From assembly GCF_045865695.1 (NCBI RefSeq), contig NZ_BAACAP010000227.1, positions 37,824-69,823 of the forward strand: a DNA stretch of 32,000 nt. Direction: 5' to 3'. The position numbers and the translations under genes are program-made. This DNA comes from Scytonema sp. NUACC26 (GTDB lineage: Bacteria > Cyanobacteriota > Cyanobacteriia > Cyanobacteriales > Nostocaceae). Under the pieces are notes generated by a model, which saw only the letters and a list, made by a program, of their open reading frames with translations, had not been told where the DNA came from and ran no database searches. Shown here one piece after another: positions 8,572 to 32,000 of the stretch. The first letter of the stretch is position 1, and every line of letters starts with the position of its first letter.

Positions 8572-8581
8572 TTGAAAAATT

Positions 8582-12013: not shown

Positions 12014-12021
12014 AGCAGATC

Positions 12022-12930
12022 TCAAGTTAATATAATCCCTTTATCAAAAACGCGGTTATCGCTGTCGATACCACTGATTTCTATTCTATCTGGATAAACC
12101 TCAACAGCAGCAAAACTTAGTTTTGATGCAGAATAATCTGTCCAATCGGAATGTCCAACAGGACGAGTTCCCGCACCTCCACCACAAATTAAATATGTTG
12201 TTCCGTTAATAACTTTTGTTCTTTCATAATGGTGTTCGTGACCGTTAATATAGAGTTGGACTCTATATTTTTGAAAGAGTGGAGTGAAGATTTTTATAAA
12301 ATTTGGATTACTACCATAAACACCCGATGCATAAATCGGATGATGACCGTATACAATTTTCCAAGTCGCGTTAGAACGAATTAATTCGTTCTCTAACCAT
12401 ATTAACTGATTTTTCCAATCGGCATTGTCGTTGGTATCTAAAGCGAAAAATTGTATGCGATCGCGACGAAAAGTGTAGAAGCGCCCCAATATATTAAAGT
12501 TAACATATTTCATTTGAGGGTTGCCATTTTCCGTGCGAATATCATGATTTCCTAAAACAGCTTGAAATTTCACGCCTTTTTGAAGCAAGGATGCATAGGG
12601 ACGCTCAAAAACTTCATTAATTTTTTCAATTTCGCCGTTAGTATATATATTATCTCCTGCCAGTAGAATGAGATCGTAAGGCTTTTGGCTGTGATATTTA
12701 GTCATTGCTCTAGCTACAGAATACTGACCGCTATCTCCGGTTCCTGTATCTGCAACAGAGACAAAACGAAGCAACAAATCTTTTGTTTTTGGTTGAGCAG
12801 AGACGACTGTATTTGCTACGGCAGCACTATGAGTATAATTGCGATTTTGACGACCTAAAAGACCAAGAATACCTGCACCAAGGGTACTTAAACTACCAAA
12901 AAAGAGAAATTGACGACGTTTTAGTTTCAT
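12022..12930 (-). CDS. Calcineurin-like metallophosphoesterase (purple-acid-phosphatase-like) with a Tat-type signal peptide
   Basis: N-terminus MKLKRRQFLFFGSLSTLGAGILG (RRxFL twin-arginine). Phosphoesterase motifs SVADTGTG, LAGDNIY, LGNHD, YGHHPIY, INGHEHHYER. Confidence 0.85.
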   Translation of the reverse strand: MKLKRRQFLFFGSLSTLGAGILGLLGRQNRNYTHSAAVANTVVSAQPKTKDLLLRFVSVADTGTGDSGQYSVARAMTKYHSQKPYDLILLAGDNIYTNGEIEKINEVFERPYASLLQKGVKFQAVLGNHDIRTENGNPQMKYVNFNILGRFYTFRRDRIQFFALDTNDNADWKNQLIWLENELIRSNATWKIVYGHHPIYASGVYGSNPNFIKIFTPLFQKYRVQLYINGHEHHYERTKVINGTTYLICGGGAGTRPVGHSDWTDYSASKLSFAAVEVYPDRIEISGIDSDNRVFDKGIILT

Positions 12931-12986
12931 GAAATTGGGTTAGTGGTTAGTAGCGTAGGATAGGCGTCTCGCCTGTCATCGTTAGT

Positions 12987-13035
12987 TGACAAATGACCAA
13001 TGACAAATGACAAATGACAAATGACAAATGACAAT
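12987..13035. repeat. STRR heptamer array (TGACAAA, 7 units)
   Basis: Direct reading: TGACAAA TGACCAA TGACAAA x4 TGACAAT. Confidence 0.85.
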
Positions 13036-13074
13036 ATAAATTTCAATCAATATAACATTTGCCCGGAAGAAAAT

Positions 13075-14304
13075 TTATGGGCTACAAAGGTTACTACCCA
13101 AACGATTGATACAAGAAGATTTTTCTTCAGACGTTAACTCATTCCATTCCACATCTCGGCGTAAAACGATACCATTATGACTATTTAAAAAACGCGGTAA
13201 TTGCTCGTACTGAATAACTTTTAATGTTTGAATATCATAAGTTGTATAAGTAGTTAATTCTGGTGAATTAAAGTTAATATCTAGCACAGTTAAAGATTTC
13301 AAACGACGAGGGGTAGTGTCAATTAATGGTCGAGGACCAGAACCGAGAAGCCCTAAGTGGAGTAGCTGTAAGTTACCGCGATGTCCGGGATAGTAAGCGT
13401 GCTGGTGACCGCTAATATAGGTGTGTACCTTGTACCTTTCTAGCATTGCCCGCAGTCGATCTGCATTATCCATGACGTTTCCCGGATCGTTACGACCAAC
13501 CGCAATTCCGTATAAAGGCAAATGACCGAGTAAAACTCTCATTTTGGCTGCTTGAGCTTTGGAACTAGCAAGAGTTTTTTCGACCCATTGCAGCTTTTCT
13601 TGTGGAATGCGGCTAGAAGAACCATCCCACACCAGGAAAAATATATCTTTGTACTCAAAAGAGTAGTAAAAAGGAAATTCAAAACGGTCAACAAATTGAA
13701 CTCCAGGGTCGTGTTTGGGATTATTCCAGTACTCTGTTGCTAAGTCTCGCTCTTTTTGGTAAATAAAATTACCCTTGGCTCCTAACGAGCTTGAAGCATC
13801 ATGATTACCAATGGTAAAACCAAAAGGAAGCTTGGCACGGCGGAGAGGGGCTGCAATGTGGTTATCAAAAGCAGCCCACATTGCCCGGATTTGTTGTTCT
13901 GATAGGGTAGCTTTTTGTCCAGCAACCATGTCTCCACCGCATAGAACGAGATCCGGTTGCCAAAAGGGAATTAACGCTATGCCCTTATCCACTTCTGGAT
14001 CGTAGTCGGTGGAACCATAAGCGCTATTGAGGTCGCTGATTGCTAACAAACGCACATCGCCACGCTTTGGATTGAACAAACCATCCAATCCCGCACTTTT
14101 GACAATGGCAGCTGTTTCTGGAGGTAAAGATGACTGTGAAACAGTTTGAGGTTGAGTTTGGGAAACATTAGTTTCAAGCGATCGCTGTACTGTAACAGGT
14201 ATTTGTGGCGATTTAACTGATTGACAGGCATGCAATGCAAAACAAAGACACAACCCCAAAGTAATTCCAAAAAAGATTTGAGGAAAAAACTGCCGAAAAC
14301 GCAT
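13075..14304 (-). CDS. Metallophosphoesterase, probable lipoprotein
   Basis: 409 aa. Signal peptide ending in the lipobox-like LHAC. Motifs ISDLNSAYG, CGGDMVAG, TIGNHDAS, LGHLPLY, SGHQHAYY. Confidence 0.8.
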   Translation of the reverse strand: MRFRQFFPQIFFGITLGLCLCFALHACQSVKSPQIPVTVQRSLETNVSQTQPQTVSQSSLPPETAAIVKSAGLDGLFNPKRGDVRLLAISDLNSAYGSTDYDPEVDKGIALIPFWQPDLVLCGGDMVAGQKATLSEQQIRAMWAAFDNHIAAPLRRAKLPFGFTIGNHDASSSLGAKGNFIYQKERDLATEYWNNPKHDPGVQFVDRFEFPFYYSFEYKDIFFLVWDGSSSRIPQEKLQWVEKTLASSKAQAAKMRVLLGHLPLYGIAVGRNDPGNVMDNADRLRAMLERYKVHTYISGHQHAYYPGHRGNLQLLHLGLLGSGPRPLIDTTPRRLKSLTVLDINFNSPELTTYTTYDIQTLKVIQYEQLPRFLNSHNGIVLRRDVEWNELTSEEKSSCINRLGSNLCSP

Positions 14305-21766: not shown

Positions 21767-22960
21767 ATGAAACTTAGCCTGTGTACGATTGTCAAAAACG
21801 AACAAAAAACCCTTCCCAAGTGTCTGAGTAGTGTTAAGAACCTTGTTGATGAAATGATTGTATTAGATACAGGTTCAACAGACAGCACTCCACAAATCGC
21901 TAAAAAATTCGGTGCTGAGGTACACCATTTTCAATGGTGTAATGACTTTAGTGCTGCTCGCAATGAGGCTTTAAAATATGTTACGGGCGATTGGGTTCTC
22001 GTACTAGATGCAGATGAAACTCTTACCCAAAAAATAGTACCGCAGTTAAAAGAAGCCATACAAAGGGAAGAATACCTGCTTATTAACTTGGTACGCCACG
22101 AAGTTGGTGCAGAACAATCTCCTTATTCCTTAGTTTCTCGCCTATTCCGCAAGCATCCAGAAATCTCCTTTTCGCGCCCTTACCATGCTTTGGTAGATGA
22201 TAGCGTATCTCAACTGATCGAGCGAGAACCGCATTGGCAAATCGGTTACTTGGAAGGAGTGGCAATTTTACATACAGGATATCAAAAAGATACCATAGCC
22301 CGACAAAATAAATTTGCTAAAGCACAAACCGCAATGGAGGAGTTTTTTGCCGCTCATCCTAACGATCCCTATGTTTGTAGTAAATTAGGCGCAGTTTATG
22401 TCGAACAAGGTAAAGTCATACAAGGAGTGGAGTTACTCGCAAAAGGAGTTGCGTCTGCTGAAGAGAACTACGATATTTTGTACGAACTTTATTATCATTT
22501 GGGTATTGCTTACAGTCGGTTGCAAAATACTAGACAAGCAATAGCTCACTATCAAGCTGCTATTAAATTACCTATTTATCCAATACTAAAATTAGGAGCG
22601 TATAACAATTTAGGGACTATGTTAAAAGCATCTGGAGATTTAAATGGGGCAAAAATAGCTTATGAAACAGCTTTAAAAATCGCTCCCAGTTTTACAACAG
22701 GATATTATAATCTTGGTATGACATTAAAAGCAATGAATTTATTGCAAGATGCGATCGCTGCTTATCAAAAAGCCATTCAATTAAATCCTAAATATGCCGA
22801 AGCTTACCAAAACTTGGGAGTTGTACTATTAAAACTAGGCTATGTAGAAGATAGTTTAACTGCTTTTAGGTCTGCGATCGCACTTCACGAACAACACAAT
22901 CCTGAAGAAGCAAAACGATTGCGCCAAGGTTTGAAAGAGATGGGATTGATTAACCAGTGA
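21767..22960 (+). CDS. Family-2 glycosyltransferase fused to C-terminal TPR repeats
   Basis: N-terminus LSLCTIVKNEQKTLPKCLSSV...VLDTGSTDST...ARNEALKYVTGDWVLVLDADE (GT2 DxD). The C-terminal half has repeated AxxxYxxAlxlxP TPR units (AIAHYQAAIKL, AKIAYETALKIAP, AIAAYQKAIQLNP). Confidence 0.85.
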   Translation: MKLSLCTIVKNEQKTLPKCLSSVKNLVDEMIVLDTGSTDSTPQIAKKFGAEVHHFQWCNDFSAARNEALKYVTGDWVLVLDADETLTQKIVPQLKEAIQREEYLLINLVRHEVGAEQSPYSLVSRLFRKHPEISFSRPYHALVDDSVSQLIEREPHWQIGYLEGVAILHTGYQKDTIARQNKFAKAQTAMEEFFAAHPNDPYVCSKLGAVYVEQGKVIQGVELLAKGVASAEENYDILYELYYHLGIAYSRLQNTRQAIAHYQAAIKLPIYPILKLGAYNNLGTMLKASGDLNGAKIAYETALKIAPSFTTGYYNLGMTLKAMNLLQDAIAAYQKAIQLNPKYAEAYQNLGVVLLKLGYVEDSLTAFRSAIALHEQHNPEEAKRLRQGLKEMGLINQ

Positions 22961-23097
22961 CCACCTGACCAGTGACCACCTGACCAGTGACCACCTGACC
23001 ACCTGACCAGTGACCACCTGACCAGTGACCACCTGACCAGTGACCACCTGACCAGTGACCACCTGACCAGTGACCACCTGACCACTAACCACTAACC
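22954..23097. repeat. Tandem array of a 15-nt compound unit (CCAGTGA+CCACCTGA), about 9 units, ending in CCACTAA variants
   Basis: Direct reading. The array fills the whole gap between two convergent genes and contains both stop codons (TGA 22958..22960; TAG on the minus strand at 23092..23094). Confidence 0.9.
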
Positions 23098-24261
23098 AAT
23101 AACTCCTTTGACAAACCTTTCCAATCTATCCATTCCCTTTTCGATTGTTGCCATGTCCGTAGCATAGGAAAGGCGAATGTTATCATCAGCACCAAAGGCT
23201 ATTCCTGGAATAACTGCAACTTGCTCTTTTTCTAGTAAGGCGTTACAGAAATCCAGGGATTTTAGCCCTGTTTTGCTAATATCGGGAAATAGGTAGAATG
23301 CGCCATCAGGTTTGGTACATACGAGTCCGGGAATCGCGTTGAGTCTTTCCAACATTACCTGTCGCCGTTGTGCGAAACCTTGGCGCATTTCTTCAACACA
23401 GTCTTGGGAATCTTCCAAAGCTGCGATCGCACCGTATTGAGCAAAAGTACACACATTAGATGTACTATGGCTTTGAATCGTAATTGTTGCTTTAATCAAA
23501 TCTAGAGGTCCCGCTAAGTATCCTATGCGCCATCCCGTCATAGAATAAGCTTTGGCAAAGCCATTACTGATAATGGTTCGAGCAAAAATTTCTTCTCCCA
23601 ATGAACCAATGCTGACGTGTTTTGCACCGTCATAAAGAATCTTTTCGTAAATCTCGTCAGAAACGACAAGGATATCTTTCTCAACAACTATCGCCGCTAA
23701 GGCTTTGATTTCATCTGGTGTATAAACCATCCCTGTGGGATTGGATGGCGAGTTAAGAATCAATAACTTTGTCCTAGGGGTAATCGACTTACGTAACTGT
23801 TCGGGAGTAATCTTATAATCCGTAGAGGCATCTGTAGAGACGATAACTGAAACCCCGTCTGCAAGCGTTACCATTTCAGGATAGCTTAACCAATAAGGTG
23901 CAGGAATAATCACCTCATCACCCGATTCAATCAATGCTAGTATCAAATTAAACAGAGAGTGCTTACCGCCATTAGTGACAACGACATTTTCTGCTTTGTA
24001 ATCCAAACCGTTGTCAGTTTTAAGCTTGCGGGCGATCGCTTCTCTTAACTTTGGTTCTCCGGCAGCTGGTCCATACTTAGTCTTACCATCATCCAGCGCT
24101 TTTTGTGCAGCCACTTTGACGTGCGTCGGGCTGTCATAATCTGGTTCTCCGGCGCTAAAACTACAAACGTCTATACCCTCTGCCTTCATCGCCTTGGCTT
24201 TTGCAGCGATGGCTAAGGTTATGGAAGGCGTTACCTGACTAACTCGTCCTGCAAGCTTCAT
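23092..24261 (-). CDS. Pyridoxal-phosphate-dependent class I aminotransferase (aspartate aminotransferase-like)
   Basis: [43 protein letters not shown]..., NPSNPTG, and the PLP-lysine motif [17 protein letters not shown]. The ORF track starts 7 codons earlier (24282); MKLAGRV at 24261 fits the family N-terminus. Confidence 0.92.
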
Positions 24262-24361
24262 CGTTTCTTTTATTAGGCACATTCTTACCTATTAAAGGAT
24301 ATACCAGAAACTTTATCGATTTTTGTCTTTTAATAATTACTTTTGTAAGTTGCTCGCCGAA

Positions 24362-24599
24362 GTTAGGGACTCCCAAATAAAAAAGACCCCAACTTTACTC
24401 TTGTGGGACGGGCGTCCTCGCCCGTTCTTTATCTGTGGCGGGCTAGAAGCTCCGCAGTCGCCTCAACTCTTGGAACCCTCCGCAGTTGCTTCAACGGGGG
24501 GAACCCTCCGCAGTCGCCTCAACGGGGGGAACCCCCGCACGGCGCTGCTCTCCGCAACGCACTGCTCTCCGCACGGCGCTGCTCTGCGCACCACAAGAT
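24362..24599. mobile_element. MITE-like element, copy 3 (core inverted relative to copy 1, with internal tandem duplications)
   Basis: TTAGGGACTCCCAAATAAAAAAG...CTCTTGTGGG ... CACCACAAGATG. The core segment ccgcagtcgcctcaacggggggaacccccgcacggcgctgctc is the exact reverse complement of 15401..15443. ccgcagtcgcctcaac occurs twice, plus a variant. Confidence 0.65.
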
Positions 24600-24770
24600 G
24601 GACAAACCACTAACACTATTGTTAACAAATGTAAAAACTTTTTGACACCTGCATAAATCTGCTTGCCACCTCCGTTAAGTAAACGAGGGTTCAAATCGGA
24701 AGCAAACTTTTGAGAGAATCCGAACTTACCTAGTACACATCGACTCACACTTTTTAAAGGAGAAAATTAC

Positions 24771-25295
24771 ATGGCTAACGGTACTTCTGGAAACGATACA
24801 CTTTACGGAACTGACTTGGCTGATAGTATCTACGCTTATGAAGGAGATGATACTGTTTACGCTGAGGCTGGTGACGATTACGTTGATGCTTGGTATGGCA
24901 ATGACACCGTTTATGGTGAAGCTGGTAACGACACGTTACTGGGTTATTACGGTGATGACTTCCTAAGTGGTGGTCGTGGAGACGATACTATCAAAGGTGA
25001 AGCTGGCAATGACACTCTCGTTGGTGGTTATGGTAAAGATACACTGTGGGGCGGTGATGGAGCTGATAAGTTTGTCTTTAACTACTTGTATGAAGGCGTT
25101 GATGTTATCAAAGACTTCCAGTGGACTGAAGGCGACAAAATTCTAGTTTCCGAAGCTGGATTTGGTGCTTGGTCTAATAACGACTTTAGCTATAACAGCA
25201 CAACTGGTGCTTTGTCTTTCCTTGGCGTTCAATTTGCCACTATTGAAAACAAGCCTTCTGGTTTTTCAACCAATCTTGATGTTCAACTCATCTAA
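24771..25295 (+). CDS. Small calcium-binding protein with RTX/hemolysin-type nonapeptide repeats
   Basis: 174 aa. About 8 consecutive GxxGxD-type units (GNDTLYGTD, GDDTVYAEAGDD, GNDTVYGEAGNDTLLGYYGDDFLSGGRGDDTIKGEAGNDTLVGGYGKDTLWGGDGADKFVF). A Shine-Dalgarno-like AAAGGAG lies upstream. Confidence 0.8.
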   Translation: MANGTSGNDTLYGTDLADSIYAYEGDDTVYAEAGDDYVDAWYGNDTVYGEAGNDTLLGYYGDDFLSGGRGDDTIKGEAGNDTLVGGYGKDTLWGGDGADKFVFNYLYEGVDVIKDFQWTEGDKILVSEAGFGAWSNNDFSYNSTTGALSFLGVQFATIENKPSGFSTNLDVQLI

Positions 25296-25462
25296 GCTCA
25301 TCACAATCTTTCTGTTTAAGAGACATTCATGACAAAAAGAGGTGGATAGAGTAGAACGTCTTTTCTTTTTCTCGCTTTTCTCAGCAAGCGTTGTGCTGTA
25401 TTTAATCGCTTAACTGCCACTTTACAAGTCAAGAAGAAAGTTTCCCAAGAAAGTAGTTTATT

Positions 25463-25491
25463 CCCACCGTCTTGCACGAGTGGGTTTTTTT
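25463..25491 (+). terminator. Intrinsic terminator downstream of the RTX-repeat gene
   Basis: CCCACCGT-cttgc-ACGAGTGGG (8 bp stem, one bulge) followed by TTTTTTT. It overlaps the stop codon of the convergent ATPase gene. Confidence 0.55.
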
Positions 25492-26923
25492 ATGTTTGTT
25501 CGTCACTACTTAAACGCATCTGAAAATATTGACGATATAAATTACAACGAGGCTGGACTTTATTACCAGCGAGTTTGACTAACCCCATACTTTGTAACTG
25601 ATAAGCTGATATAGGTTCTATTTGTACGGGATGATGTGTATGAATCACTTGTTGAAAAGCTGCTGCTAATTTGAGGTGTTCTTGCAAATCTAACCAGTAT
25701 TTCCATAAGTGAGGGCGGTAAATACCAGCTTCAGTTGGTGCTTCTGCTAAAAGTTGCTCCACTGTTATATCTGGATGGCTTTTAAGATGGGCAAAAGCTA
25801 ATTCTAACAGGTAGGGGTGTCCTCCTAATAATTCCATTAGTTGTGCAACGGAGTTTGATGCGATCGCAAGCCCATGTTGCTGAGACAAAGCCAAGACTTG
25901 CTCCTGAGTAAACTCAGACAACTCAATGGGTAACCCAACATTAAAGGGGGATTGATTAATATTGAGTTGAATATAAACATCAGTTGAGTGTAAGATTGCC
26001 AATCTTAACTTTTGCCAAAGCCGACGACTTCTTGCCTTTTCATACCAAGAACGGAGTAATCCAAAAAAGTCTTCGTAAATTTCTGGATGGGGAAACAGTA
26101 AATCGACATCATCCAAGCAGAGCACAAGGGGATTTGTCAGTTCAGTCAAAAGATATTCCTCAAAATATGTCGTACAACTGACTTTAGAACCTATACCCTC
26201 TTCATCCCAGTATTCATCCAATTCCACTGGTAACCGAAGTTCGCGACTAATATTGATGCAAAACCAACGTAAGAACTTATTTAAGTTGGTAAAATGTATG
26301 CTCCTATCTGCCAGTTTAAAACTCAAGTAAACAATAGAGTAGTCTTTTTCTACTACTTGACTCAACACTCGTGTCATTAAATACGTTTTCCCCATAAGGC
26401 TAGGGGCTTTAATCCGGATGAGAGAACCTGGTTGTAAAATATGTTCGTAGCAGAGAGATTCTATAGGAGGACGTTCTACATAAACCTCTATTTTTGAAAC
26501 TTCGTTCTTTTCTATTTGACTTCGTTCTTGTTGAATTTGCGTATTTTGTTTTAGCGAGTCTTCTTTGTTACTAGCAATATTTCTAGAAGTCTGTTTATCC
26601 CCTTCTGCGCCCGCTAAAACTTGTAAATTTCTACCGACTTCACTGAAAGATTGTTTCTCCCAATACCTTTTTAACGCTTCCTTAAAGTTACTTTTCTTAA
26701 CTTTTTCTCCCAAAGCATCGCTTAACAGTTTCCAAAATTTAGGCGCTACATCTTGACTAATGTAGGTTGTAGCGTATTGGTGTTTAGCAGCAATAGTATC
26801 ATAGTCCTCGCGCTGCCAAGCTCCCTTCACGATCGCGATTTCAAGGTCTGTTAGTTTTCTGTTGAATTTTGAATGTACGACTTGATTAGCTGCTTCAATA
26901 GCTTCGTTTAAATTGAAATCCAT
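25490..26923 (-). CDS. AAA_35-type (STAND-like) ATPase with an N-terminal HTH-like domain
   Basis: 477 aa. N-terminus LTDLEIAIVKGAWQREDYDTIAAKHQYATTYISQDVAPKFWKLLSDALGEKVKKSNFKEAL resembles the sigma-r4/LuxR-like module seen on many cyanobacterial STAND/WD40 proteins. Then YVERPPIESLCYEHILQPGSLIRIKAPSLMGKTYLM (P-loop) and VLCLDDVDLLF (Walker B). Confidence 0.7.
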   Translation of the reverse strand: MDFNLNEAIEAANQVVHSKFNRKLTDLEIAIVKGAWQREDYDTIAAKHQYATTYISQDVAPKFWKLLSDALGEKVKKSNFKEALKRYWEKQSFSEVGRNLQVLAGAEGDKQTSRNIASNKEDSLKQNTQIQQERSQIEKNEVSKIEVYVERPPIESLCYEHILQPGSLIRIKAPSLMGKTYLMTRVLSQVVEKDYSIVYLSFKLADRSIHFTNLNKFLRWFCINISRELRLPVELDEYWDEEGIGSKVSCTTYFEEYLLTELTNPLVLCLDDVDLLFPHPEIYEDFFGLLRSWYEKARSRRLWQKLRLAILHSTDVYIQLNINQSPFNVGLPIELSEFTQEQVLALSQQHGLAIASNSVAQLMELLGGHPYLLELAFAHLKSHPDITVEQLLAEAPTEAGIYRPHLWKYWLDLQEHLKLAAAFQQVIHTHHPVQIEPISAYQLQSMGLVKLAGNKVQPRCNLYRQYFQMRLSSDEQT

Positions 26924-27154
26924 AGTTTTATTGAAAATAATAATCTTTTTTGTAAATCAAATGTAGTTATAAGAGCTTGAGTCAAGAACGCAGTACTAGT
27001 GTTACATACAGTCATACCAAATCTACAAGAAAAATGTTAAGTACTCTTAGATGGGCATTACCTGACTTACAACTCTTGATTGCTCTTTCAGAAACCTAGT
27101 TTGTGAGAGACCATTTATAAAGTCCATCTTAAATCGCCAAACATAATATATTGC

Positions 27155-27185
27155 GTAGTTTGGTTTCGTTCCTCAACCCAACATA
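27155..27185. repeat. Hairpin-forming dispersed repeat (GTTTGGTTtcgttcctcAACCCAAC); inverted copy at 30979..31008
   Basis: The 25-nt core differs at 1 position from the reverse complement of gttgggttgaggaacgaaacccaac at 30981..31005. Confidence 0.7.
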
Positions 27186-27206
27186 CAGTTGAGATTATCT
27201 GAATTA

Positions 27207-27340
27207 ACCTGAATTTTCTGACCTTTTCTAACTTGTTGGAAGAAAAATTAATTCAAACACTCCTGAATTTAACTCAACTCCTTTCCGAAAGGATAAATCA
27301 TACTAACAATAGAAAGCAACAAACAAGCTTTCCAACAAAA
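27207..27340 (+). promoter_or_regulatory. Upstream module A (probable promoter plus 5' leader) of the cargo genes; paralogous to 28579..28721
   Basis: Blocks shared with module B: ACCTGAATTTTCTGACYTTTTCT, CTGAATTTARCTCAACTCCT, AATCATACTAAYAAYAGAAAGCAACMAAMAAGCTTTCCARCAAA. CATACT is a possible -10 element. Confidence 0.35.
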
Positions 27341-27376
27341 CATCAAACACAAACTAGAAAAATTAAGGAGTCAAAA

Positions 27377-27775
27377 ATGTCTACTTCTATTTCTCAAACA
27401 CAACTATTTACTGAAATGACAGCAGAAGAAGGAGCAACACTAAGCGGTGGAACTGCTCAAGTTTACCTCAAACATTTTGTGATTTACGACACTCAAGAAT
27501 GGCCTCGAGACGAACCTTATCTAAAAGTTGATGGTAGCACGATTTGGTCTAAAGATGGTGCGGGAAATGGCATTCACGCTATTGACAAAGCATTTAATAT
27601 CACTGGTACTTATGATACACTTTCCCTTTGGGAAAATGATTCCTGGCCAAATAATGATGAATTTTTAGGTGAAAATAAAATTTACTCTTGGCAACGAGGA
27701 ACAGATTTAGAACTCTCTTTCACTGGGGAAGGTGCTAACTACAAACTTGTCTATGATGTTTATGATGTTTATTAA
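27377..27775 (+). CDS. Double-glycine-leader secreted protein, paralog 1 (132 aa; predicted 25-aa leader, 107-aa mature domain)
   Basis: ATG at 27377 preceded by AAGGAG (27364..27369). Leader MSTSISQTQLFTEMTAEEGATLSGG ends in GG with hydrophobic -4/-12 and acidic -8/-9 residues. The ORF-track start (TTG 27233) is probably too far upstream. A C39-peptidase ABC transporter lies downstream. Confidence 0.75.
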   Translation: MSTSISQTQLFTEMTAEEGATLSGGTAQVYLKHFVIYDTQEWPRDEPYLKVDGSTIWSKDGAGNGIHAIDKAFNITGTYDTLSLWENDSWPNNDEFLGENKIYSWQRGTDLELSFTGEGANYKLVYDVYDVY

Positions 27776-27922
27776 AATCAAGCGGTTTCAGGTATCTAAA
27801 TCCATCACCTCAAAAGAGTAAATTCTACCCAACTAACTCTCAAACATATTAACGTTGGAAAGCTAATTCGCTTTCCAGCGAAAAATATCCAAGCACAAAC
27901 TAGAAAAATTAAGGAGTCAAAA

Positions 27923-28318
27923 ATGTCTACTTCTATTTCTCAAACACAACTATTTACTGAAATGACAGCAGAAGAAGGAGCAACACTAAGCGGTGGAACT
28001 GCTCAAGTTTACCTCAAACATTTTGTGATTTACGAGACTCAAGAATGGCCTCAAGACGAACCTTATCTAAAAGTTGGTGACAAAACAATTTGGTCTAAAG
28101 ACGGTGCGGGAAAGGGCATTCACGCTATTGACAAAGCATTTAAGATTACTGATGCTTATGATACACTTTCCCTTTGGGAAAATGATTCCTGGCCAAATAA
28201 TGATGAATTTTTAGGTGAAAATAAAATTTACTCTTGGCAACGAGGAACAGATTTGGAACTTTCTTTCACTGGGGAAGGTGCTAATTACAAACTTGTATAC
28301 GATGTTTACTCTGTTTAA
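27923..28318 (+). CDS. Double-glycine-leader secreted protein, paralog 2 (131 aa)
   Basis: The same 29 nt upstream and the first 37 codons are identical to paralog 1, including the leader and SD. There are 10 amino-acid replacements plus a shorter C-terminus. Confidence 0.75.
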   Translation: MSTSISQTQLFTEMTAEEGATLSGGTAQVYLKHFVIYETQEWPQDEPYLKVGDKTIWSKDGAGKGIHAIDKAFKITDAYDTLSLWENDSWPNNDEFLGENKIYSWQRGTDLELSFTGEGANYKLVYDVYSV

Positions 28319-28349
28319 ATCTAGAACATAACATAGGTGTTTTAATAAA

Positions 28350-28379
28350 CTCGGTATTTTTCAAATATCGGGTTTCTTT
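28350..28379 (+). terminator. Possible intrinsic terminator after cargo paralog 2
   Basis: Stem CUCGGUAU / AUAUCGGG (8 pairs including two G-U), 7-nt loop, then TTTCTTT. Confidence 0.4.
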
Positions 28380-28578
28380 ATAGAAATTCTATCTGATATG
28401 TGAAATCCACGTACTACGTTACATGGGTAATGCCTACCAAAAGTCTGATTTGGTGGGCTACAGTACTACAGTATTTAAAATTTTTCAGAAATTATCTGGC
28501 GTTCATATAAATAACAAACGAGGGAGATTGTACATTATCCTACCCAGTTACTCTAAATGGGTGCAAATAATTAGGGTG

Positions 28579-28721
28579 ACCTGAATTTTCTGACTTTTTC
28601 TGACTTTTTCTGACTTTTTAAACAAAAAATGAATTGAGGAGCTTCTGAATTTAGCTCAACTCCTATACAGAATTATCAATCATACTAATAACAGAAAGCA
28701 ACCAAAAAGCTTTCCAGCAAA
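28579..28721 (+). promoter_or_regulatory. Upstream module B (probable promoter plus leader) of the ABC exporter; paralog of 27207..27340, with a triplicated 10-mer
   Basis: Same conserved blocks as module A. TGACTTTTTC is repeated three times at 28591..28620. Confidence 0.35.
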
Positions 28722-28786
28722 GAATTCACAATTTTACTGAAAATTTTCCTCGGACTGTTTTTTGTACATCAATATTATTATCAATT

Positions 28787-30973
28787 ATGAAATACCAAGT
28801 TGTTCTACAACACAGTGAAGAAGACTGTGGTGCTGCCTGTATTGCCACTATTGCTAAACATTACGGACGTACTTTTGCTATCAGTCGAGTGCGGGAAGCT
28901 GTGGGTACTGGTTCGCGAGGCACTTCCTTACTGGGTTTGAAACGGGGTGCAGAAGCACTGGGGTTTAATGCTCGTCAGGTAAAAGCTAATCCTGAAATGC
29001 TCGATCGCTTAATCGAAGTCCCTTTACCAGCAATTATCCACTGGAAAGGATATCACTGGGTTGTACTACACGGTCAAAAAGGGAAAAAATACATTGTTGC
29101 TGACCCCAGCCTTGGTATGCGTTATCTGACTCGCAAAGAGTTAATGATGGGTTGGGTCAATGGTGTCATGCTTTTGCTAGAACCAGACTACAGCCGTTTT
29201 CTAGAACAACCAGAAGATAAAATTGGCGGTTTTGGACGTTTTATTGCCCGTGCTTGGCCTTATCGCTTTATTCTTGCTCAGGCAATTGCCATTAATATAG
29301 CCATTGGTCTCCTCTCTCTCGCCTCTCCCTTGATGATGCAATTACTCACCGATGATGTGTTGGTACGGGGAGATACTCAATTGTTAACAACAGTGGCAAT
29401 TGGGGTGATTACGATGAATTTTATTAGAAGTGCGATCGCATTAGTACAATCCCACCTCATCGGTCACTTCGGTCAGCGCTTGCAATTCGGATTAATTCTA
29501 GAATACGGACGCAAACTGTTACACTTACCCCTGTCATACTTTGAAGGTCGTCGTAGTGGGGAAGTCGTCAGCCGCATTTCTGATGTAAACGCCATCAACG
29601 CTCTTGTTTCCCAAATTGTTCTCGGTTTACCCAGCCAATTTTTTATCGCCGTGGTTTCCTTGGGGATTATGCTGTTCTACAGTTGGCAACTATCCATAGC
29701 TTCTTTTGTTGCATTTATCATCCTGACTTGCATTAATCTGCTTTTTGTACCGATGATGCGGAATAAAACCCGTAAATCCATCGTTTTACGCACAGAAAAT
29801 CAAGGTTTTCTGGTAGAAACTTTTCGCGGCGTCCAAGTGCTAAAAACAACCCAAGCAACCCCCCAAGCCTGGGAAGAGTATCAAACAAATTACGGTCGCC
29901 TTGCCAACCTGGGGTGGAGTACGATGAAACTGGGGTTATACAGTGGTACTATTACCGGTCTTATTTCCACATTCACCAATATTGCCTTACTTTGGTTGGG
30001 AAGTTACTTAGTCATCAATCATACATTAACAATTGGTCAACTTCTCATGTTTAACGGTATGAGTGGTAACTTCCTCGGTTTCTTAGGTTCAGCAATTGGC
30101 TTAATTGATGAATTTATTACCGCCCAAGTTGTCATTCAGCGCCTGACAGAAGTTATTGACGCCACCCCAGAAGACGAAAACGACTTCAAAAAACCTTGGG
30201 CGCAAATTCCCGGTAATGCAGATATCACCTGTACCAACCTCAACTTCCACCATGCAGGTAGAGTAGACCTACTGCAAGACTTTTCTCTCACTATTCCCGG
30301 CGGTCAAGTCATCGCTTTAGTTGGTAAATCAGGTTGTGGCAAAAGTACCTTAGCTAAATTGATAACTGGTTTGTATCAAACTCAATCAGGTAATATCTCT
30401 TATGATATATACAACCAACAAGATTTATCTTTAGAATGCTTGCGACAGCAAATCGTTCTCGTACCTCAAGAACCCCACTTTTGGAGTCGCTCAATTGTTG
30501 ACAACTTCCGCTTCAGTTATCCCAACATTACTTTTGAACAAATTGTACGAGCTTGTCAAATTGCTGGTGCAGATGAATTCATTAACAAACTACCCGACAA
30601 ATACCAAACAGTTTTAGGAGAATTTGGCGCAAATCTTTCTGGCGGACAAAAGCAAAGATTAGCTATTGCCAGAGCAATTGTAACCGATCCACCCGTACTC
30701 ATTTTAGACGAATCCACAGGTGCTCTCGACCCAGTTAGCGAAGCCGAAGTTCTCACTAAACTGCTACACCATCGACGAGGTAAAACCACAATAACGATCA
30801 GCCATCGTCCCAAAGTCATTCAACGAGCCGATTGGATTGTACTCCTCGAACAAGGTCGCTTAAAAATCCAAGGAACTCCAGAATATCTCCGACAAATTCC
30901 AGGCGAACACTTACATTTTCTCGAAGAAGGTAACATTCAAAGGTCATTGTTAACAGTCAGCAGTAACCAGTGA
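28787..30973 (+). CDS. Peptidase-C39-domain bacteriocin-type ABC transporter (leader-cleaving exporter)
   Basis: 728 aa. N-terminal C39 domain with catalytic Cys context QHSEEDCGAACIATIAKHYG and HWVVL His region. Six-helix TMD. NBD with GKSGCGKST (Walker A), LSGGQKQRLAIARA (signature) and LILDEST (Walker B). Confidence 0.95.
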   Translation: MKYQVVLQHSEEDCGAACIATIAKHYGRTFAISRVREAVGTGSRGTSLLGLKRGAEALGFNARQVKANPEMLDRLIEVPLPAIIHWKGYHWVVLHGQKGKKYIVADPSLGMRYLTRKELMMGWVNGVMLLLEPDYSRFLEQPEDKIGGFGRFIARAWPYRFILAQAIAINIAIGLLSLASPLMMQLLTDDVLVRGDTQLLTTVAIGVITMNFIRSAIALVQSHLIGHFGQRLQFGLILEYGRKLLHLPLSYFEGRRSGEVVSRISDVNAINALVSQIVLGLPSQFFIAVVSLGIMLFYSWQLSIASFVAFIILTCINLLFVPMMRNKTRKSIVLRTENQGFLVETFRGVQVLKTTQATPQAWEEYQTNYGRLANLGWSTMKLGLYSGTITGLISTFTNIALLWLGSYLVINHTLTIGQLLMFNGMSGNFLGFLGSAIGLIDEFITAQVVIQRLTEVIDATPEDENDFKKPWAQIPGNADITCTNLNFHHAGRVDLLQDFSLTIPGGQVIALVGKSGCGKSTLAKLITGLYQTQSGNISYDIYNQQDLSLECLRQQIVLVPQEPHFWSRSIVDNFRFSYPNITFEQIVRACQIAGADEFINKLPDKYQTVLGEFGANLSGGQKQRLAIARAIVTDPPVLILDESTGALDPVSEAEVLTKLLHHRRGKTTITISHRPKVIQRADWIVLLEQGRLKIQGTPEYLRQIPGEHLHFLEEGNIQRSLLTVSSNQ

Positions 30974-31128
30974 CCAGTAGGTTGGGTTGAGGAACGAAAC
31001 CCAACATTTAGTAACCAGTGACCAGTAATCAGTGACCAGTGACCAAGAAACAATTCAAAATCCAAAATCTAAAATTAATTAATCCAAAATCCAAAATCAA
31101 TTAATCCAAAATCTAAAATCCAAAATCC
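30961..31128. repeat. Two adjacent STRR arrays (CAGTGAC/CAGTAAC, then TCCAAAA/TCTAAAA); the first is split by the hairpin repeat at 30979..31008
   Basis: Direct reading. The ABC transporter stop TGA (30971..30973) lies inside a CCAGTGA unit. The second array ends 2 nt before the HlyD start codon. Confidence 0.85.
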
Positions 31129-31129
31129 T

Positions 31130-32000
31130 ATGTTCGGCTACTTCAAATCAGATTCTATCCCCTTCAACCAAGAAAACGATTTTCTGCCTCCCCTGAGTCG
31201 TTGGACAACTTACGGTGGAATGTTTATCTTAGGGGTCATAAGTTTAGTAGTTCCAATTGCTTCTGTGAGTAAATATAAAGAGGTTGTAAAAACAGAAGCT
31301 GTTATCCGTCCTGTTGGTGAATTGCGAATTGTGCAAGCAGCAACAGAAGGTCAAGTCATACAAATCTCTGTTCAAGAAAATCAATTTATTAAAAAAGGGG
31401 ATATCATAGCCACAATTGATGACTCCCGCCTACAAACTAAAAAAAGCCAACTACAAAGTAGTATTCACCAAGCGAAGTTACAACTTATTCAAATTAACTC
31501 TCAAATTGGTGCTCTTAACAATCAAATCCGCGCTGAAACTGACCGCGTAAACCGCACTATTGCTTCTGCTGAAGCCGAACTTAGCGGGCGCATTCGTTCA
31601 TACCAAGATAAAAAAATAACGACTGTTGCAGAAGTTCAAGAGGCTGAAGCTAATGTTGGAATATCTGAAGAGGAATTGCATAAAGCTCATGCAGAGTTAA
31701 GATCGGCACAAGCAAATTTAAATGCTGCTCGCTCGGCTTTGATAGCTGCACGTTCTAAACAGAATCGATATGAAATGGCGGCTATTGTAGGAGCGCTGTC
31801 AAAAGACCAGTTAGAAGAAGCACAACTCGCTGCTAAACAACAAGAACAAGCAGTGGAAGCACAAGATGCAGTTGTGGAAGCGCAAAAACAAACTATCGCT
31901 CGCCTCAAACAAGCTGTTTCTGCATCTGTTGCCAAACGACAACGAGCACAAGTTGCTTTAAATCCTAGCTCTTCAGAAGTCGCGATCGCAACGGAACGTA
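31130..32000 (+). CDS. HlyD-family periplasmic adaptor (membrane fusion protein), 3' end beyond the window
   Basis: My own translation; the ORF is not in the track because it has no stop in the window. MFGYFKSDSIPFNQENDFLPPLSRWTTYGGMFILGVISLVVPIASVSKYKEVVKTEAVIRPVGELRIVQAATEGQVIQISVQENQFIKKGDIIATIDDSRLQ..., followed by a long coiled-coil (QL/AE/AQ-rich) segment. There are no stops to position 32000. Confidence 0.85.
   Translation, partial: MFGYFKSDSIPFNQENDFLPPLSRWTTYGGMFILGVISLVVPIASVSKYKEVVKTEAVIRPVGELRIVQAATEGQVIQISVQENQFIKKGDIIATIDDSRLQTKKSQLQSSIHQAKLQLIQINSQIGALNNQIRAETDRVNRTIASAEAELSGRIRSYQDKKITTVAEVQEAEANVGISEEELHKAHAELRSAQANLNAARSALIAARSKQNRYEMAAIVGALSKDQLEEAQLAAKQQEQAVEAQDAVVEAQKQTIARLKQAVSASVAKRQRAQVALNPSSSEVAIATER

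Follow-up and report, generated by a model that had tools for sequence, protein, structure and literature searches.

Analysis of a 32,000-nt stretch of Scytonema sp. NUACC26 DNA (assembly GCF_045865695.1, contig NZ_BAACAP010000227.1, positions 37,824-69,823 of the forward strand; hereafter the window) makes it reasonably likely that the locus carries out PCAT-driven, type-1-like export of a small Ca2+-binding C2-type protein, with the unit probably switched on by an adjoining STAND-like ATPase. The export part is an already known layout; new are the type of cargo, the ATPase and the arrays in the upstream modules.

The export unit

Every gene in the order named by the original prediction (ATPase, spacer, two cargo genes, C39-ABC transporter and HlyD adaptor) was found, and the 453 nt given for the divergent intergenic region is the exact length. 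The genes are as follows:

25490..26923, minus strand: HTH_VMAP-M9 plus AAA_35 protein (HTH-AAA_35 ATPase), 477 aa; Pfam AAA_35 E=2e-142
27377..27775, plus strand: cargo gene 1, a 132-aa precursor with a 25-aa double-glycine (GG) leader and a predicted 107-aa C2-like domain
27923..28318, plus strand: cargo gene 2, a 131-aa precursor with a 25-aa double-glycine leader and a predicted 106-aa C2-like domain
28787..30973, plus strand: C39-ABC exporter (PCAT), 728 aa; Peptidase_C39, ABC_membrane and ABC_tran
31130..32000, plus strand: HlyD-family periplasmic adaptor, N-terminal 290 aa of a gene that runs past the window end; TIGR01843 type_I_hlyD E=1e-11

The proposed GG-leader, C39-ABC and HlyD export unit is borne out, and its peptidase active site is intact. 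The C39 domain (PF03412, E=7e-35) carries catalytic Cys14, His90 and Asp106, placed by alignment to the PCAT1 peptidase domain, with the Cys at the position changed to Ala in 7n87. This active triad, unlike the Cys-less C39-like domain of HlyB, is combined with type I ABC membrane and ATPase domains, as in PCATs. The exporter has a six-helix exporter domain, matches PF00664 and PF00005, contains Walker A GKSGCGKST513, signature LSGGQ617 and Walker B ILDEST639, and matches PCAT1 4ry2 (E=9e-103; residues 2-703 on PCAT1 12-712) and ComA over its full length. Complete HlyD orthologues of 501-511 aa follow the exporter in the complete syntenic loci L002, L003 and L006, in which no second peptidase-less ABC, LanM or SurA gene was found.

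The window genes, with a short-type C39-ABC, HlyD and multiple precursors, have the composition that defines group III clusters. The definition of such clusters also excludes a second peptidase-less ABC, LanM and SurA. For cyanobacteria the layout as such is not atypical: it is the known group III GG/C39-ABC/HlyD arrangement, with a reported precursor span of 29-129 aa (Wang, Fewer and Sivonen 2011, PMC3140520). As predicted, a scan of the larger ORFs in the rest of the window turned up no modification enzymes. The idea of a self-contained module did not hold, as no outer-membrane partner gene lies in the locus, so that this factor must come from elsewhere, and TpsA-like and TPR-CHAT genes are usually joined to the unit (in syntenic and distant loci). 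Copies of a dispersed palindromic element form a 29-nt inverted repeat on either side of the cargo-plus-exporter block, and short tandem repeats are abundant in the surrounding spacers.

The C2-like cargo family

Cargo gene 1 has a strong ribosome-binding site (AAGGAG at 27365). A start at TTG 27233 was rejected in favour of ATG 27377 because the upstream in-frame stretch loses frame in related loci. The two tandem GG-leader paralogues expected here are 92% identical (121 of 131 residues of cargo 2 are the same in cargo 1), and cargo 2 is 100% identical to a hypothetical protein of Scytonema sp. NUACC26. Double-glycine leaders were defined as stretches of 15-30 residues that end in GG, are hydrophobic at -4, -7, -12 and -15 and are acidic around -8/-9. 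The cargo leader, MSTSISQTQLFTEMTAEEGATLSGG, agrees with this definition (L-4, M-12 and F-15; E-8/E-9) but has G at -7, and the pattern LFTELTxEExxxxxGG is common to 30 of 150 cargo family representatives. At 107 and 106 aa, 12.3 kDa and pI 4.3-4.6, the mature cargos contain no cysteine, in line with the claim of a cysteine-free cargo of ~107 aa that is folded-domain-sized rather than a peptide.

Structure prediction and profile searches suggest that the mature cargo is a divergent C2 domain from an unannotated family. An AF2 model of cargo 2 (pLDDT 77) has a disordered leader and a predicted eight-strand beta-sandwich, consistent with the eight-stranded antiparallel sandwich of the C2 superfamily; every one of the best 50 Foldseek matches listed against the PDB is a C2 domain or a protein that contains one, the best of them with E=2e-5 and TM 0.55 over the full precursor. 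A 144-member family profile matches 27 PDB sequences, all C2-domain proteins, headed by otoferlin (4.8e-7), dysferlin (1e-5) and E-Syt2 (9e-4), and its matches fall exactly on the C2 calcium loop. The window cargo alone stays below every Pfam and NCBIfam threshold, and neither it nor its seven-sequence profile gives a C2 match; of the 144 family members, just 5 reach or come close to the Pfam C2 cut-off. D45, D88, D95 and G98 are near-invariant in alignments of 30 and 144 sequences and align on the C2 loop-3 motif, a conservation from which Ca2+ and ligand binding by the cargo may be proposed.

The GG-leader branch of the family (GG-C2) is confined to filamentous cyanobacteria, with 1-13 tandem copies and just 25-50% cargo identity among loci. 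Of the 19 loci whose downstream sequence reaches at least 1 kb, 17 have GG-C2 genes immediately upstream of a C39-ABC gene (hand tally from per-locus gene orders), and HlyD comes after C39-ABC wherever the contig goes on. The trio of cargo, C39-ABC and HlyD is kept across filamentous cyanobacteria. Frequent companions of this branch are a TpsA-like exoprotein and a signal-peptide-bearing TPR-CHAT protease: TPS and CHAT genes come after HlyD in L002 and L003, and in L006 a TPS gene follows HlyD after inserted genes, that locus ending before any CHAT gene could appear.

The HTH-AAA_35 ATPase and the upstream modules

Foldseek matches, sequence motifs and an AF2 model (pLDDT 76) agree with the predicted STAND-like ATPase with an N-terminal helical HTH-type head. 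After a four-helix HTH-type head (1-90) and a disordered linker (95-152), the protein has a P-loop core, then a helical domain, and it ends in a winged-helix-like C-terminus. Its motifs include Walker A GKT178, Walker B LDD270-272 and an invariant GGHP367, and the P-loop, helical domain with GxP motif and winged helix of a STAND core can all be recognised. The head is a putative assignment from the Pfam name on close orthologues (PF26355 HTH_VMAP-M9, carried by proteins 87-93% identical to the window ATPase) together with the helical model. Best fold matches were plant NLRs (NRC3/4 and Sr35), MalT, Apaf-1, CED-4, Avs3/4, archaeal Walker ATPases and ORC/Cdc6; because the last two groups score similarly, these matches do not fix the clade. 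The protein ends at residue 477, just past the winged-helix-like element, with no C-terminal repeat sensor domain (TPR, WD40 or LRR), and we therefore call it STAND-like rather than a typical STAND protein.

Four related genomes, with the locus in two different chromosomal settings, keep AAA_35, cargo genes, exporter and HlyD linked, as a conserved linkage would have it. At least seven other GG-C2 loci (L011-L014, L016, L034 and L035) have no HTH-AAA_35 gene within 5-10 kb, so the export unit does not generally depend on one. Of the co-occurrence of cargo homologues with C39 exporters and AAA_35 ATPases that was to be checked, the exporter part stood in nearly all loci and the ATPase part in some of them: the ATPase is a clade-specific rather than universal partner of the cargo. 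HTH-AAA_35 proteins form a very large paralogous family, with members also beside unrelated secreted-protein genes.

The same DNA module was said to lie upstream of the cargo and exporter units. It is real, spanning 158 nt at 73% identity, far beyond chance. The features of the two copies and the neighbouring spacers are:

27182..27339, plus strand: upstream module copy 1 (candidate promoter/operator and 5' UTR start), before cargo gene 1; direct repeat
27198..27226, plus strand: phased box array of copy 1, TCTGAATTA / CCTGAATTT / TCTGACCTT, 9-10-nt period, score 21/24; candidate HTH-AAA_35 sites
27262..27270, plus strand: proximal box CCTGAATTT within CCTGAATTTAACTCAAC, ~45 nt downstream of array copy 1
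27297..27332, plus strand: -10-like element ATCATACTAACAAT, then hairpin GAAAGC-N9-GCTTTC (27312-27332); predicted transcript start region and 5' stem-loop
27853..27880, plus strand: hairpin in the cargo 1-cargo 2 spacer with GGAAAGC-N6-GCTTTCC core, matching the hairpin pattern; dG -17.7 kcal/mol, z -5.7
28347..28375, plus strand: 13-bp hairpin then UUUCUUUAU, after the last cargo gene; dG -11.9 kcal/mol, z -4.7
28564..28721, plus strand: upstream module copy 2, before the exporter gene; direct repeat
28580-28617, plus strand: copy 2 array, CCTGAATTT and three TCTGACTTT, score 22/24
28644-28652, plus strand: copy 2 proximal box TCTGAATTT
28679, plus strand: copy 2 element ATCATACTAA, with hairpin at 28694-28714

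Copy 1 is conserved before the first cargo gene in L002, L003, L005 and L006, where the rest of the spacer varies; copy 2 exists in the window and L002 only, and in L003 and L006 the spacer measures 155-168 nt and has no module. No further copies were found in the other ~30 kb of the window or on cyanobacterial plasmids, the module has no Rfam match, and a consensus scan gave no sigma-70-type promoter within it. The proximal box keeps its relative position in L003, L007, L010, L031 and L033, and 27297..27332 is an invariant block in the alignment of related loci. The hairpin pattern was found 3 times against 0.02 expected, and the hairpin at 27312-27332 has a dG of -5.8 kcal/mol (z -7.5). The hairpin between the cargo genes is a candidate mRNA processing or stabilising element; the one after the last cargo gene, conserved in L002, L003 and L006, is terminator- or attenuator-like.

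The modules hold phased CTGAATTT decamer arrays. In 454 kb of related loci we found 16 phased arrays against ~0.35 expected, all 16 in loci with an HTH-AAA_35 gene and none in ~26 loci without one. Arrays also stand in paralogous HTH-AAA_35 loci without an exporter, before an RTX-TpsA operon and an S8 protease gene and possibly before a trypsin-like protease gene (~500 nt upstream); in L033, with the HTH-AAA_35 gene on the other side of the operon, the array still precedes the cargo gene. Wherever arrays occur, the HTH-AAA_35 protein keeps the recognition-helix motif QYAT[ST]Y[IL]SQD; three distant homologues with a changed motif come from loci without arrays. L031 and L036 have arrays below threshold only. 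This association is due in part to shared ancestry of whole loci, and one box common to all paralogues, if that is the case, would leave locus specificity to be explained. A shared module whose candidate operator co-occurs with the ATPase family nonetheless strengthens the idea of the ATPase as regulator.

Proposed mechanism, alternatives and known systems

We infer the biological role of the locus along the following lines. The divergent HTH-AAA_35 protein would act like MalT, as a signal-gated, nucleotide-dependent oligomer that binds the phased decamers and proximal box of the shared module and, once bound, activates a weak promoter directly upstream of the GAAAGC hairpin. As the module is duplicated in this lineage, we propose that cargo and pump each own a copy. 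Strong ribosome-binding sites, tandem copies and the terminator-like hairpin would yield far more cargo than pump. The C39 domain would cut the cargo after Gly25, and the ABC/HlyD pair, together with a TolC-like channel whose gene lies outside the locus, would carry it unfolded across both membranes. Outside the cell, Ca2+ on the conserved Asp cluster (D45, E86/D88 and D94) would drive folding, and the folded C2 domain may then attach to a membrane or cell-surface ligand.

It is improbable that the locus serves classical antagonism, as the original prediction had allowed, with the exported cargo killing competitors as a large bacteriocin or microcin of the class-II type. The GG leader, C39-ABC and HlyD are canonical bacteriocin export architecture and fit the group III clusters (PMC3140520), a cluster type first annotated as bacteriocin in cyanobacteria. 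Class II bacteriocins and microcins are peptides below 10 kDa with a dedicated immunity gene; the mature cargo, at 12.3 kDa, is larger and strongly acidic, and neither the window nor the surroundings of the 13 cargo copies in Moorena (L034) yielded an immunity-like small membrane protein. C2 domains target membranes, as in perforin, but the cargo is not joined to any toxin or pore-forming domain. Near-identical tandem precursor genes are common in such clusters, yet two cargo paralogue types are stably kept here with dN/dS ~0.2 and no diversification, which points to purifying selection. EbfG, the only experimentally studied cyanobacterial GG proteins that we found in the literature, serve biofilm formation and not killing (PMC4997328). 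With no immunity gene and apparent purifying selection, a bacteriocin role is unsupported. PADLOC defence-system models did not match the ATPase, cargo, TpsA-like protein or AAA_35-CHASE2, the matches being generic ABC-ATPase and TPR only.

Somewhat less doubtful, though still unlikely, is a role of the ATPase as the signalling part of an extracytoplasmic CHAT, TpsA, CHASE2 and DUF928 network rather than as the cargo's transcription factor; it would then adjoin the export unit only through a common larger gene island, and the shared module would be bound by another factor or work as RNA. AAA_35 domains are indeed fused to CHASE2 sensors in operons with TpsA and CHAT genes (L033), a Planktothrix plasmid has HTH-AAA_35 followed by CHASE2 and DUF928 genes with CHAT and ShlB/FhaC genes adjoining, and the TPS and CHAT genes after HlyD described above fit as well. 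The HTH_VMAP-M9 name itself derives from a region of vWA-MoxR-associated proteins in conflict systems (PMC7159879). The presence of arrays, however, goes with HTH-bearing paralogues and the sequence of their recognition helix rather than with CHAT or TPS: L013, L014 and L035 have TPS and/or CHAT genes and no arrays. Direct-repeat phasing of 10 nt is typical of a protein on one DNA face, and the conserved hairpins inside the module, which might speak for an RNA element, have invariant stems and hence give no covariation support, besides the missing Rfam match. Such a network is also compatible with our main reading, as the ATPase could control its transcription. Far less plausible is that the duplicated module is a MITE-like small mobile or recombination-prone repeat without regulatory role and incidentally placed. 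Its copy 2 is confined to the window and L002 lineage, the inverted repeat brackets the block and tandem repeats fill the spacers; against this, module orientation and distance to the downstream start codon are always equal, boxes are kept between loci whose cargos are only ~30% identical and whose flanking spacer is not conserved, and no further copy turned up in the rest of the window or on cyanobacterial plasmids.

Our preferred reading, regulated export of a C2-type protein, has partial counterparts in several known systems. PCAT1 of Acetivibrio thermocellus, ComA and CvaB with HlyD/CvaA-type adaptors share the C39-ABC membrane-ATPase order, the catalytic Cys/His/Asp, the adjoining double-glycine-leader substrate and the downstream adaptor gene; unlike in those systems, the substrate here is a predicted 12-kDa C2-type folded domain rather than a few-kDa peptide, no immunity or modification gene was found, and the outer-membrane partner lies outside the locus. 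Group III clusters likewise have a short-type C39-ABC without cNMP-binding extension, HlyD and several tandem GG precursors, whereas the accessible survey text gives such precursors no fold or family and makes no AAA_35, TPS or CHAT link, the words CHAT and hemagglutinin being absent from the paper (PMC3140520). In Synechococcus elongatus PCC 7942, the tandem GG-motif genes EbfG1-4 also lie directly upstream of a C39-ABC gene, PteB; they are co-transcribed, their secretion depends on the peptidase cysteine, and their function is extracellular and non-bacteriocin (PMC4997328). Mature EbfG is 6-7 kDa and reportedly without homologues in other cyanobacteria (PMC4997328), unlike the C2-like family of filamentous forms described here, for which regulation via a STAND-like ATPase is predicted.

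MalT (8bob) and other STAND proteins have a P-loop, helical and winged-helix core similar to that of the window ATPase, and MalT, too, has an HTH-type domain. MalT binds several decanucleotide boxes, partly direct repeats, upstream of weak promoters, an arrangement that the phased decamers and proximal box resemble by analogy. Unlike MalT, the 477-aa window ATPase has its HTH at the N-terminus rather than a LuxR-type C-terminal one, it lacks the C-terminal repeat sensor, and its DNA binding is putative. Eukaryotic-type C2 domains (synaptotagmin, Munc13, perforin and ferlins) share the predicted eight-strand beta-sandwich of the cargo, and its DEPYLKV and L-W-E-N-D-x5-D-E-F-L-G-E are counterparts of the C2 calcium-loop motifs SDPYVKV and D-x-D-x5-D-x-I-G-E; sequence similarity of the window cargo alone is marginal, and unlike those domains it is predicted to stand alone, as a bacterial protein that is secreted with a cleavable GG leader. 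RTX proteins offer an analogy for the proposed export, as they are acidic, cysteine-free and Ca2+-binding and leave by an ABC, HlyD and TolC-type route. RTX cargo stays unfolded in the low-Ca2+ cytoplasm and folds outside the cell, as the acidic, cysteine-free and putatively Ca2+-binding cargo of the window would. It differs from the present cargo in its uncleaved C-terminal signal, where ours is a predicted N-terminal cleaved GG leader, and in its beta-roll, where we predict a C2 sandwich.

Gene order and the exporter

The gene content and order put forward in the original prediction were borne out at sequence level, with an ATPase gene divergent from two cargo genes that carry double-glycine (GG) leaders, a peptidase-containing C39-ABC exporter and a HlyD adaptor. 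The two tandem cargo products share 121 of 131 residues.

Genes and spacer of the export locus, in window coordinates
25490-26923, minus strand: HTH-AAA_35 protein, a STAND-like ATPase of 477 aa (Pfam AAA_35, E=2e-142)
453 nt between the ATPase gene and cargo 1: divergent intergenic spacer
27377-27775, plus strand: cargo 1, GG-leader precursor
27923-28318, plus strand: cargo 2, GG-leader precursor in tandem with cargo 1
28787-30973, plus strand: exporter, 728 aa (Pfam Peptidase_C39, ABC_membrane, ABC_tran)
From 31130 past the window end, plus strand: HlyD-type adaptor (domain match)

We place the cargo 1 start at ATG 27377 on frame conservation, because the stretch 5' of this codon does not keep its frame across related loci. 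An in-frame TTG at 27233, giving a 180-aa ORF, was rejected on these grounds.

Exporter residues 2-703 align on residues 12-712 of PCAT1 (E=9e-103), and the protein matches ComA end to end as well. In these alignments, Cys14, His90 and Asp106 of the peptidase domain occupy the catalytic positions, with Cys14 pairing with the residue mutated to Ala in the 7n87 construct; the Walker A, signature and Walker B motifs are intact. Whereas HlyB-like proteins carry a dead C39-like domain, the catalytic triad and ATPase motifs are present here, and on sequence we therefore call the protein an active peptidase-containing exporter.

A predicted family of secreted C2-type cargo

Both cargo precursors start with MSTSISQTQLFTEMTAEEGATLSGG, a canonical double-glycine leader. 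As had been proposed from the sequence, the cargo is domain-sized and cysteine-free: the mature products have 107 and 106 residues, a mass of 12.3 kDa and a pI of 4.3-4.6. An AF2 model (pLDDT 77) has a disordered leader followed by an eight-strand beta-sandwich, and the best 50 Foldseek PDB matches listed are all C2 domains or C2-containing proteins (Munc13, perforin, MCTP2, intersectin, ferlins). Among 5.8 billion proteins, close relatives amount to six clusters, all of which come from Scytonema/Tolypothrix-like Nostocales or a single metagenome. Not one of the six holds a Pfam domain, and Pfam and NCBIfam gave no family above threshold for the window cargo.

An exhaustive profile search extended the family to 202 relatives. 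Among the 150 listed, 30 have an LFTELTxEE....GG leader joined directly to a 98-118-residue domain (GG-C2), ~43 have a Sec-type signal peptide, ~39 are leaderless stand-alone proteins and the remainder are repeats or fusions, with a C25 peptidase, Calx-beta, a glutamine-deamidase toxin domain or phosphoesterase/Ig arrays as partners. The C2-like domain makes up an unannotated bacterial family of its own. Outside the GG-leader branch we saw ~105-aa leaderless, Sec-signal, tandem-repeat and fusion forms (proteins P0009-P0156). A Lachnospiraceae membrane protein raised by a scan of genome contigs was discarded as a spurious eight-residue match.

A profile of 144 family members matched 27 PDB sequences, every one a C2-domain protein (otoferlin at 4.8e-7, dysferlin at 1e-5, E-Syt2 at 9e-4; also perforin, Munc13 and synaptotagmin-1), with alignments that span the L-x-D-x-D...DDFLGE calcium-loop motif. 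Pfam C2, found in 5 of the 144, is the sole recurring family among the members, and a profile of seven cargo sequences returned chance matches alone against PDB sequences. We file the cargo as a divergent C2-superfamily domain because predicted fold and family profile together point there; the window protein by itself falls below thresholds. D45, D88, D95 and G98 are near-invariant in the family.

Two cargo paralogue types coexist in most genomes of the window clade (the window and comparison loci L002, L003, L005 and L006). Type A reads ...TQVNLKYF...GIHTVNKRFNISG... and type B ...ARVNLKYF...GYHDVGKTFDI[SE]G...; the window has two copies of type A, and variation is concentrated at residues 62-79.

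Conserved neighbours and genomic setting

Within the window clade the cargo copy number varies from locus to locus.

Comparison loci of the window clade
L002: Nostocales genome syntenic with the window; six cargo copies; order AAA_35-cargo-exporter-HlyD
L005: Scytonema sp. UIC 10036; three cargo copies; contig stops at the last cargo gene
L003: different flank (alpha-amylase); two cargo copies; order AAA_35-cargo-exporter-HlyD
L006: S. hofmannii PCC 7110, alpha-amylase flank as in L003; two cargo copies; order AAA_35-cargo-exporter-HlyD

Beyond this clade we collected 23 metagenomic and three genomic GG-C2 loci whose cargo is 25-50% identical to that of the window; all named carriers are filamentous cyanobacteria (Calothrix, Scytonema, Nostoc, Moorena, Microcoleus, Coleofasciculaceae). 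Neighbours were tallied by hand from per-locus gene orders, so linkage frequencies come from ~30 loci. The expected linkage of cargo to both exporter and ATPase split in two. Between cargo and exporter the link is very strong: of 19 loci with 1 kb or more of sequence past the last cargo gene, 17 have a closely related C39-ABC gene next in line, and HlyD comes after it wherever the contig extends. Linkage to the ATPase is real but clade-limited. Apart from the window clade, an AAA_35 gene accompanies the cargo solely at L010 (divergent), L031 (at a distance of 4.6 kb) and L033; L011-L014, L016, L034 and L035 have none within 5-10 kb.

Two further genes recur. A TPS-domain (TpsA-like) protein adjoins 9 of 11 long-flank loci and a TPR-CHAT protein 5 of 11; both lie 3' of HlyD, directly in L002 and past two inserted genes in L003. 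Since the syntenic L002 has them there, they likely lie just past the window end. TpsA-like and CHAT proteins carry N-terminal signal peptides (the full CHAT N-terminus was read in L002 and L033), so the entire island deals with extracytoplasmic proteins, and the repeated linkage suggests a larger extracytoplasmic system specific to filamentous cyanobacteria. Our literature search on CHAT, TPS and DUF928 systems found nothing relevant, including no description of a periplasmic CHAT protease paired with a two-partner-secretion exoprotein.

The TpsA-like gene (TPS domain, NPNG motif, signal peptide) and the TPR-CHAT protease gene adjoin HlyD or the exporter at L002 16111-20396, L003 13197-16040, L013 14909-20375 and L033 1071-7426, with called coordinates that overlap by 4 nt in L002, L003 and L033. 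The HlyD-TPS junction appears to be an insertion hot spot; its inserts (L003 10282-12711; L006 979-4593) differ by genome and include an AAA_15/21 and DUF3696 pair, PIN and TacA toxin-antitoxin genes and an EAD1-protein kinase. In Moorena producens PAL-8-15-08-1 (L034, 4669-13102), thirteen tandem GG-leader C2-like genes of 121-122 aa precede C39-ABC and HlyD, with no ATPase, TPS or CHAT gene within 10 kb. At L012 (3335-10402) a GG-C2 gene sits beside a second C39-ABC that adjoins a LanM-type lanthipeptide synthetase (DUF4135 and LANC_like); in some genomes, C2 cargo may therefore leave through exporters that also serve lanthipeptide precursors.

No peptide-modifying enzyme turned up among the larger window ORFs scanned, in keeping with the claim that none lie nearby. 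The products of these ORFs include an NRPS end module (A-PCP-TE, 5-2518), PNPase, an SNF2 helicase and SWIM protein, an AAA_15/21 ATPase with phosphoesterases, CemA and COP23; nearer the locus are a glycosyltransferase-TPR protein and an aminotransferase, assigned via syntenic genes of L002. The SNF2 helicase (with DUF3670) and SWIM-finger protein at 5281-9427, and the AAA_15/AAA_21 ATPase followed by two calcineurin-like phosphoesterases at 10607-14304, each resemble a defence-island-type gene set. A 174-aa RTX (HemolysinCabind) protein at 24771-25295 adjoins the ATPase gene, as in L002 and L005. Several spacers carry short tandem repeats: three 28-nt and three 17-nt units lie between the genes for the aminotransferase and the RTX protein, heptamer-type units follow the glycosyltransferase gene in a run, and a 22-nt unit is present three times in the exporter-HlyD spacer (tracts at 24450-24595, 22856-23092 and 31059-31124). 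The cargo-plus-exporter block is flanked by a 29-nt inverted repeat, 93% complementary, at 27158-27186 and 30977-31005. This palindromic element, GTTGGGTTTCGTTCCTCAACCCAAC, also occurs in the L005 spacer and could be a hairpin repeat dispersed among cyanobacteria or a sign of cassette mobility. An Rfam scan of 24000-32000 gave nothing relevant.

A candidate operator for the HTH-AAA_35 family and a proposed role of the locus

The divergent ATPase belongs to a large family. HTH_VMAP-M9 plus AAA_35 architecture occurs in >6000 clusters at E<1e-10, nearly all named matches being cyanobacterial, with many paralogues at ~60-67% identity in a star-like pattern. In an AF2 model (pLDDT 76), a head of four helices at the N terminus is joined by a disordered linker to a P-loop core, after which come a helical domain and an end resembling a winged helix. 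The proposed STAND-like identity held: Foldseek relatives include the STAND proteins NRC3/4, Sr35, MalT, Apaf-1, CED-4 and Avs3/4, besides archaeal Walker ATPases and ORC/Cdc6, and the Walker A and Walker B motifs are in place, as is an invariant GGHP (GxP-like) motif. We keep to "STAND-like" because the protein has no C-terminal repeat sensor. The HTH-type head found no confirming match among PDB sequences, PADLOC defence models did not match the ATPase, and our search on AAA_35/PF14516 found neither a paper on the family nor a described function.

Paralogues at L007 and L008 adjoin trypsin, RTX, TPS, DUF928, CHAT and S8 peptidase genes, not exporters. At L033 an AAA_35-CHASE2 fusion heads the TPS-CHAT operon, and on a Planktothrix plasmid CHASE2 and DUF928 genes come after HTH-AAA_35, with CHAT and ShlB/FhaC adjoining. 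AAA_35 is fused to, or co-operonic with, CHASE2 extracytoplasmic sensors and DUF928 near CHAT and ShlB/FhaC (L033 7413-9722; L037 8001-12415), which hints that the family as a whole belongs to an envelope-signalling network.

Shared DNA upstream of cargo and exporter, also foreseen, proved to be a 158-nt direct repeat of 73% identity (27182-27339 and 28564-28721). The architecture of this module is fixed across aligned loci.

Elements of the upstream module before cargo 1, from the module alignment
27198-27226, plus strand: phased array in which (N)CTGAATTT-like decamers, three or four in number, repeat every 9-11 nt; the window has TCTGAATTA / CCTGAATTT / TCTGACCTT
Array to proximal box: A/T-rich spacer
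27262, plus strand: proximal box CCTGAATTTAACTCAAC
Between proximal box and hairpin, plus strand: ATCATACTAACAAT element
27312-27332, plus strand: GAAAGC-N9-GCTTTC hairpin
~40 nt past the hairpin, plus strand: strong AAGGAG ribosome-binding site

A hairpin related to that of the module lies 5' of cargo 2, and a 13-bp hairpin then a U-rich tract follow the last cargo gene. The copy before the exporter looks like a recent duplication because it is limited to the window and L002, while L003 and L006 have a short spacer instead. No consensus sigma-70 promoter was found in the module, and blastn against plasmids gave no match. Covariation, which would speak for an RNA element, is impossible here since the hairpin stems are invariant, and that reading was rejected.

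The module lies upstream of the cargo gene in every GG-C2 locus with an HTH-AAA_35 gene, where the cargo is ~30-50% identical, and is absent from every GG-C2 locus without one. Scoring arrays as three boxes with >=20/24 matches at 9-11-nt spacing, we counted 16 across the 454 kb of loci collected, where simulated sequence predicts ~0.35. Every one of the 16 is in a locus that has an HTH-AAA_35 gene (two each in the window, L002, L007 and L010; one each in L003, L005, L006 and L033; three in L008, repeated in its duplicate contig L009). The arrays of L007/L008 stand in front of an RTX-TPS operon, a glyoxalase/HTH-AAA_35 unit, an S8 peptidase gene and possibly a trypsin-like gene, the last ~500 nt downstream; the box therefore goes with the ATPase family rather than with the export cluster. 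In L007 a CTGAATTT array lies directly 5' of the RTX gene heading the RTX-TPS operon.

At L033 the HTH-AAA_35 gene lies beyond HlyD, yet the array still precedes the cargo gene. The putative recognition helix, QYAT[ST]Y[IL]SQD[VI]APK, is invariant in all array-positive loci and 40 homologues; three plasmid homologues (L037-L039, 43-50% identity) have an altered helix and no arrays, and a fourth (L036, 62% identity) has a degenerate array with no obvious downstream gene. A trans-acting activator whose operator is common to the whole family would give rise to such a pattern. MalT uses phased decamer boxes, and the window array resembles them by analogy, not by membership.

Gene content, motifs, fold predictions, conserved linkages and the array-ATPase association together allow a mechanism to be proposed. 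An oligomerising HTH-AAA_35 protein would activate the module promoter, from which transcription is predicted to start shortly 5' of the GAAAGC hairpin, while copy number, strong ribosome-binding sites and an attenuator hairpin could keep cargo in excess over the pump. Cargo would be cleaved after Gly25, which would leave Thr26 as its first residue, and exported in one step by way of ABC/HlyD and a TolC-type channel whose gene lies elsewhere. On the analogy of RTX proteins and C2 domains, Ca2+ might then drive its folding and ligand binding outside the cell.

Three things go further than current annotation: a putatively secreted bacterial C2-type cargo family, a recurrent TpsA-like/CHAT link and a candidate operator for HTH-AAA_35. 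We tentatively entertain, with more doubt than confidence, a joint reading in which the uncharacterised HTH-AAA_35 proteins are a new family of compact STAND-type transcription activators that, through the phased CTGAATTT decamers as common operator, turn on modules in multicellular cyanobacteria whose products are secreted or periplasmic (GG-C2 with its PCAT pump, RTX-TpsA operons, secreted proteases). GG-C2 proteins would then be a previously unrecognised class of secreted bacterial C2 domains that fold and bind membranes or cell surfaces on extracellular Ca2+. Their partners would be TpsA-like exoproteins and periplasmic CHAT proteases, in functions at the level of the filament that concern surface, matrix or self/non-self. 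One HTH type strictly co-occurring with one phased box offers a first testable function hypothesis for the AAA_35 family and a way to read its regulon from genome sequence.

In cyanobacteria, routine annotation treats GG-leader/C39-ABC clusters as bacteriocin loci, and natural-product mining draws on them. A classical bacteriocin role would suit the export layout, but three points argue against it: no immunity gene is present in the window, the cargo is acidic and folded, and fifteen close cargo genes are under purifying selection (dN/dS 0.17-0.33, about 0.2, which also led us to reject diversifying selection). This recurrent class is predicted to export a calcium-binding C2-type domain in up to 13 tandem copies. 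That speaks for an extracellular role in structure, adhesion or membrane targeting, and for the use by prokaryotes of a domain otherwise familiar chiefly from membrane trafficking in eukaryotes.

The locus core itself is a known export architecture. Group III cyanobacterial clusters are defined by Wang et al. 2011 (PMC3140520) as a short-type C39-ABC and HlyD with on average ~4 GG precursors of 29-129 aa; the window locus fits this definition and its export layout is therefore already known. For a non-bacteriocin role of the cargo, the best precedent is EbfG/PteB in Synechococcus biofilm formation (PMC4997328).
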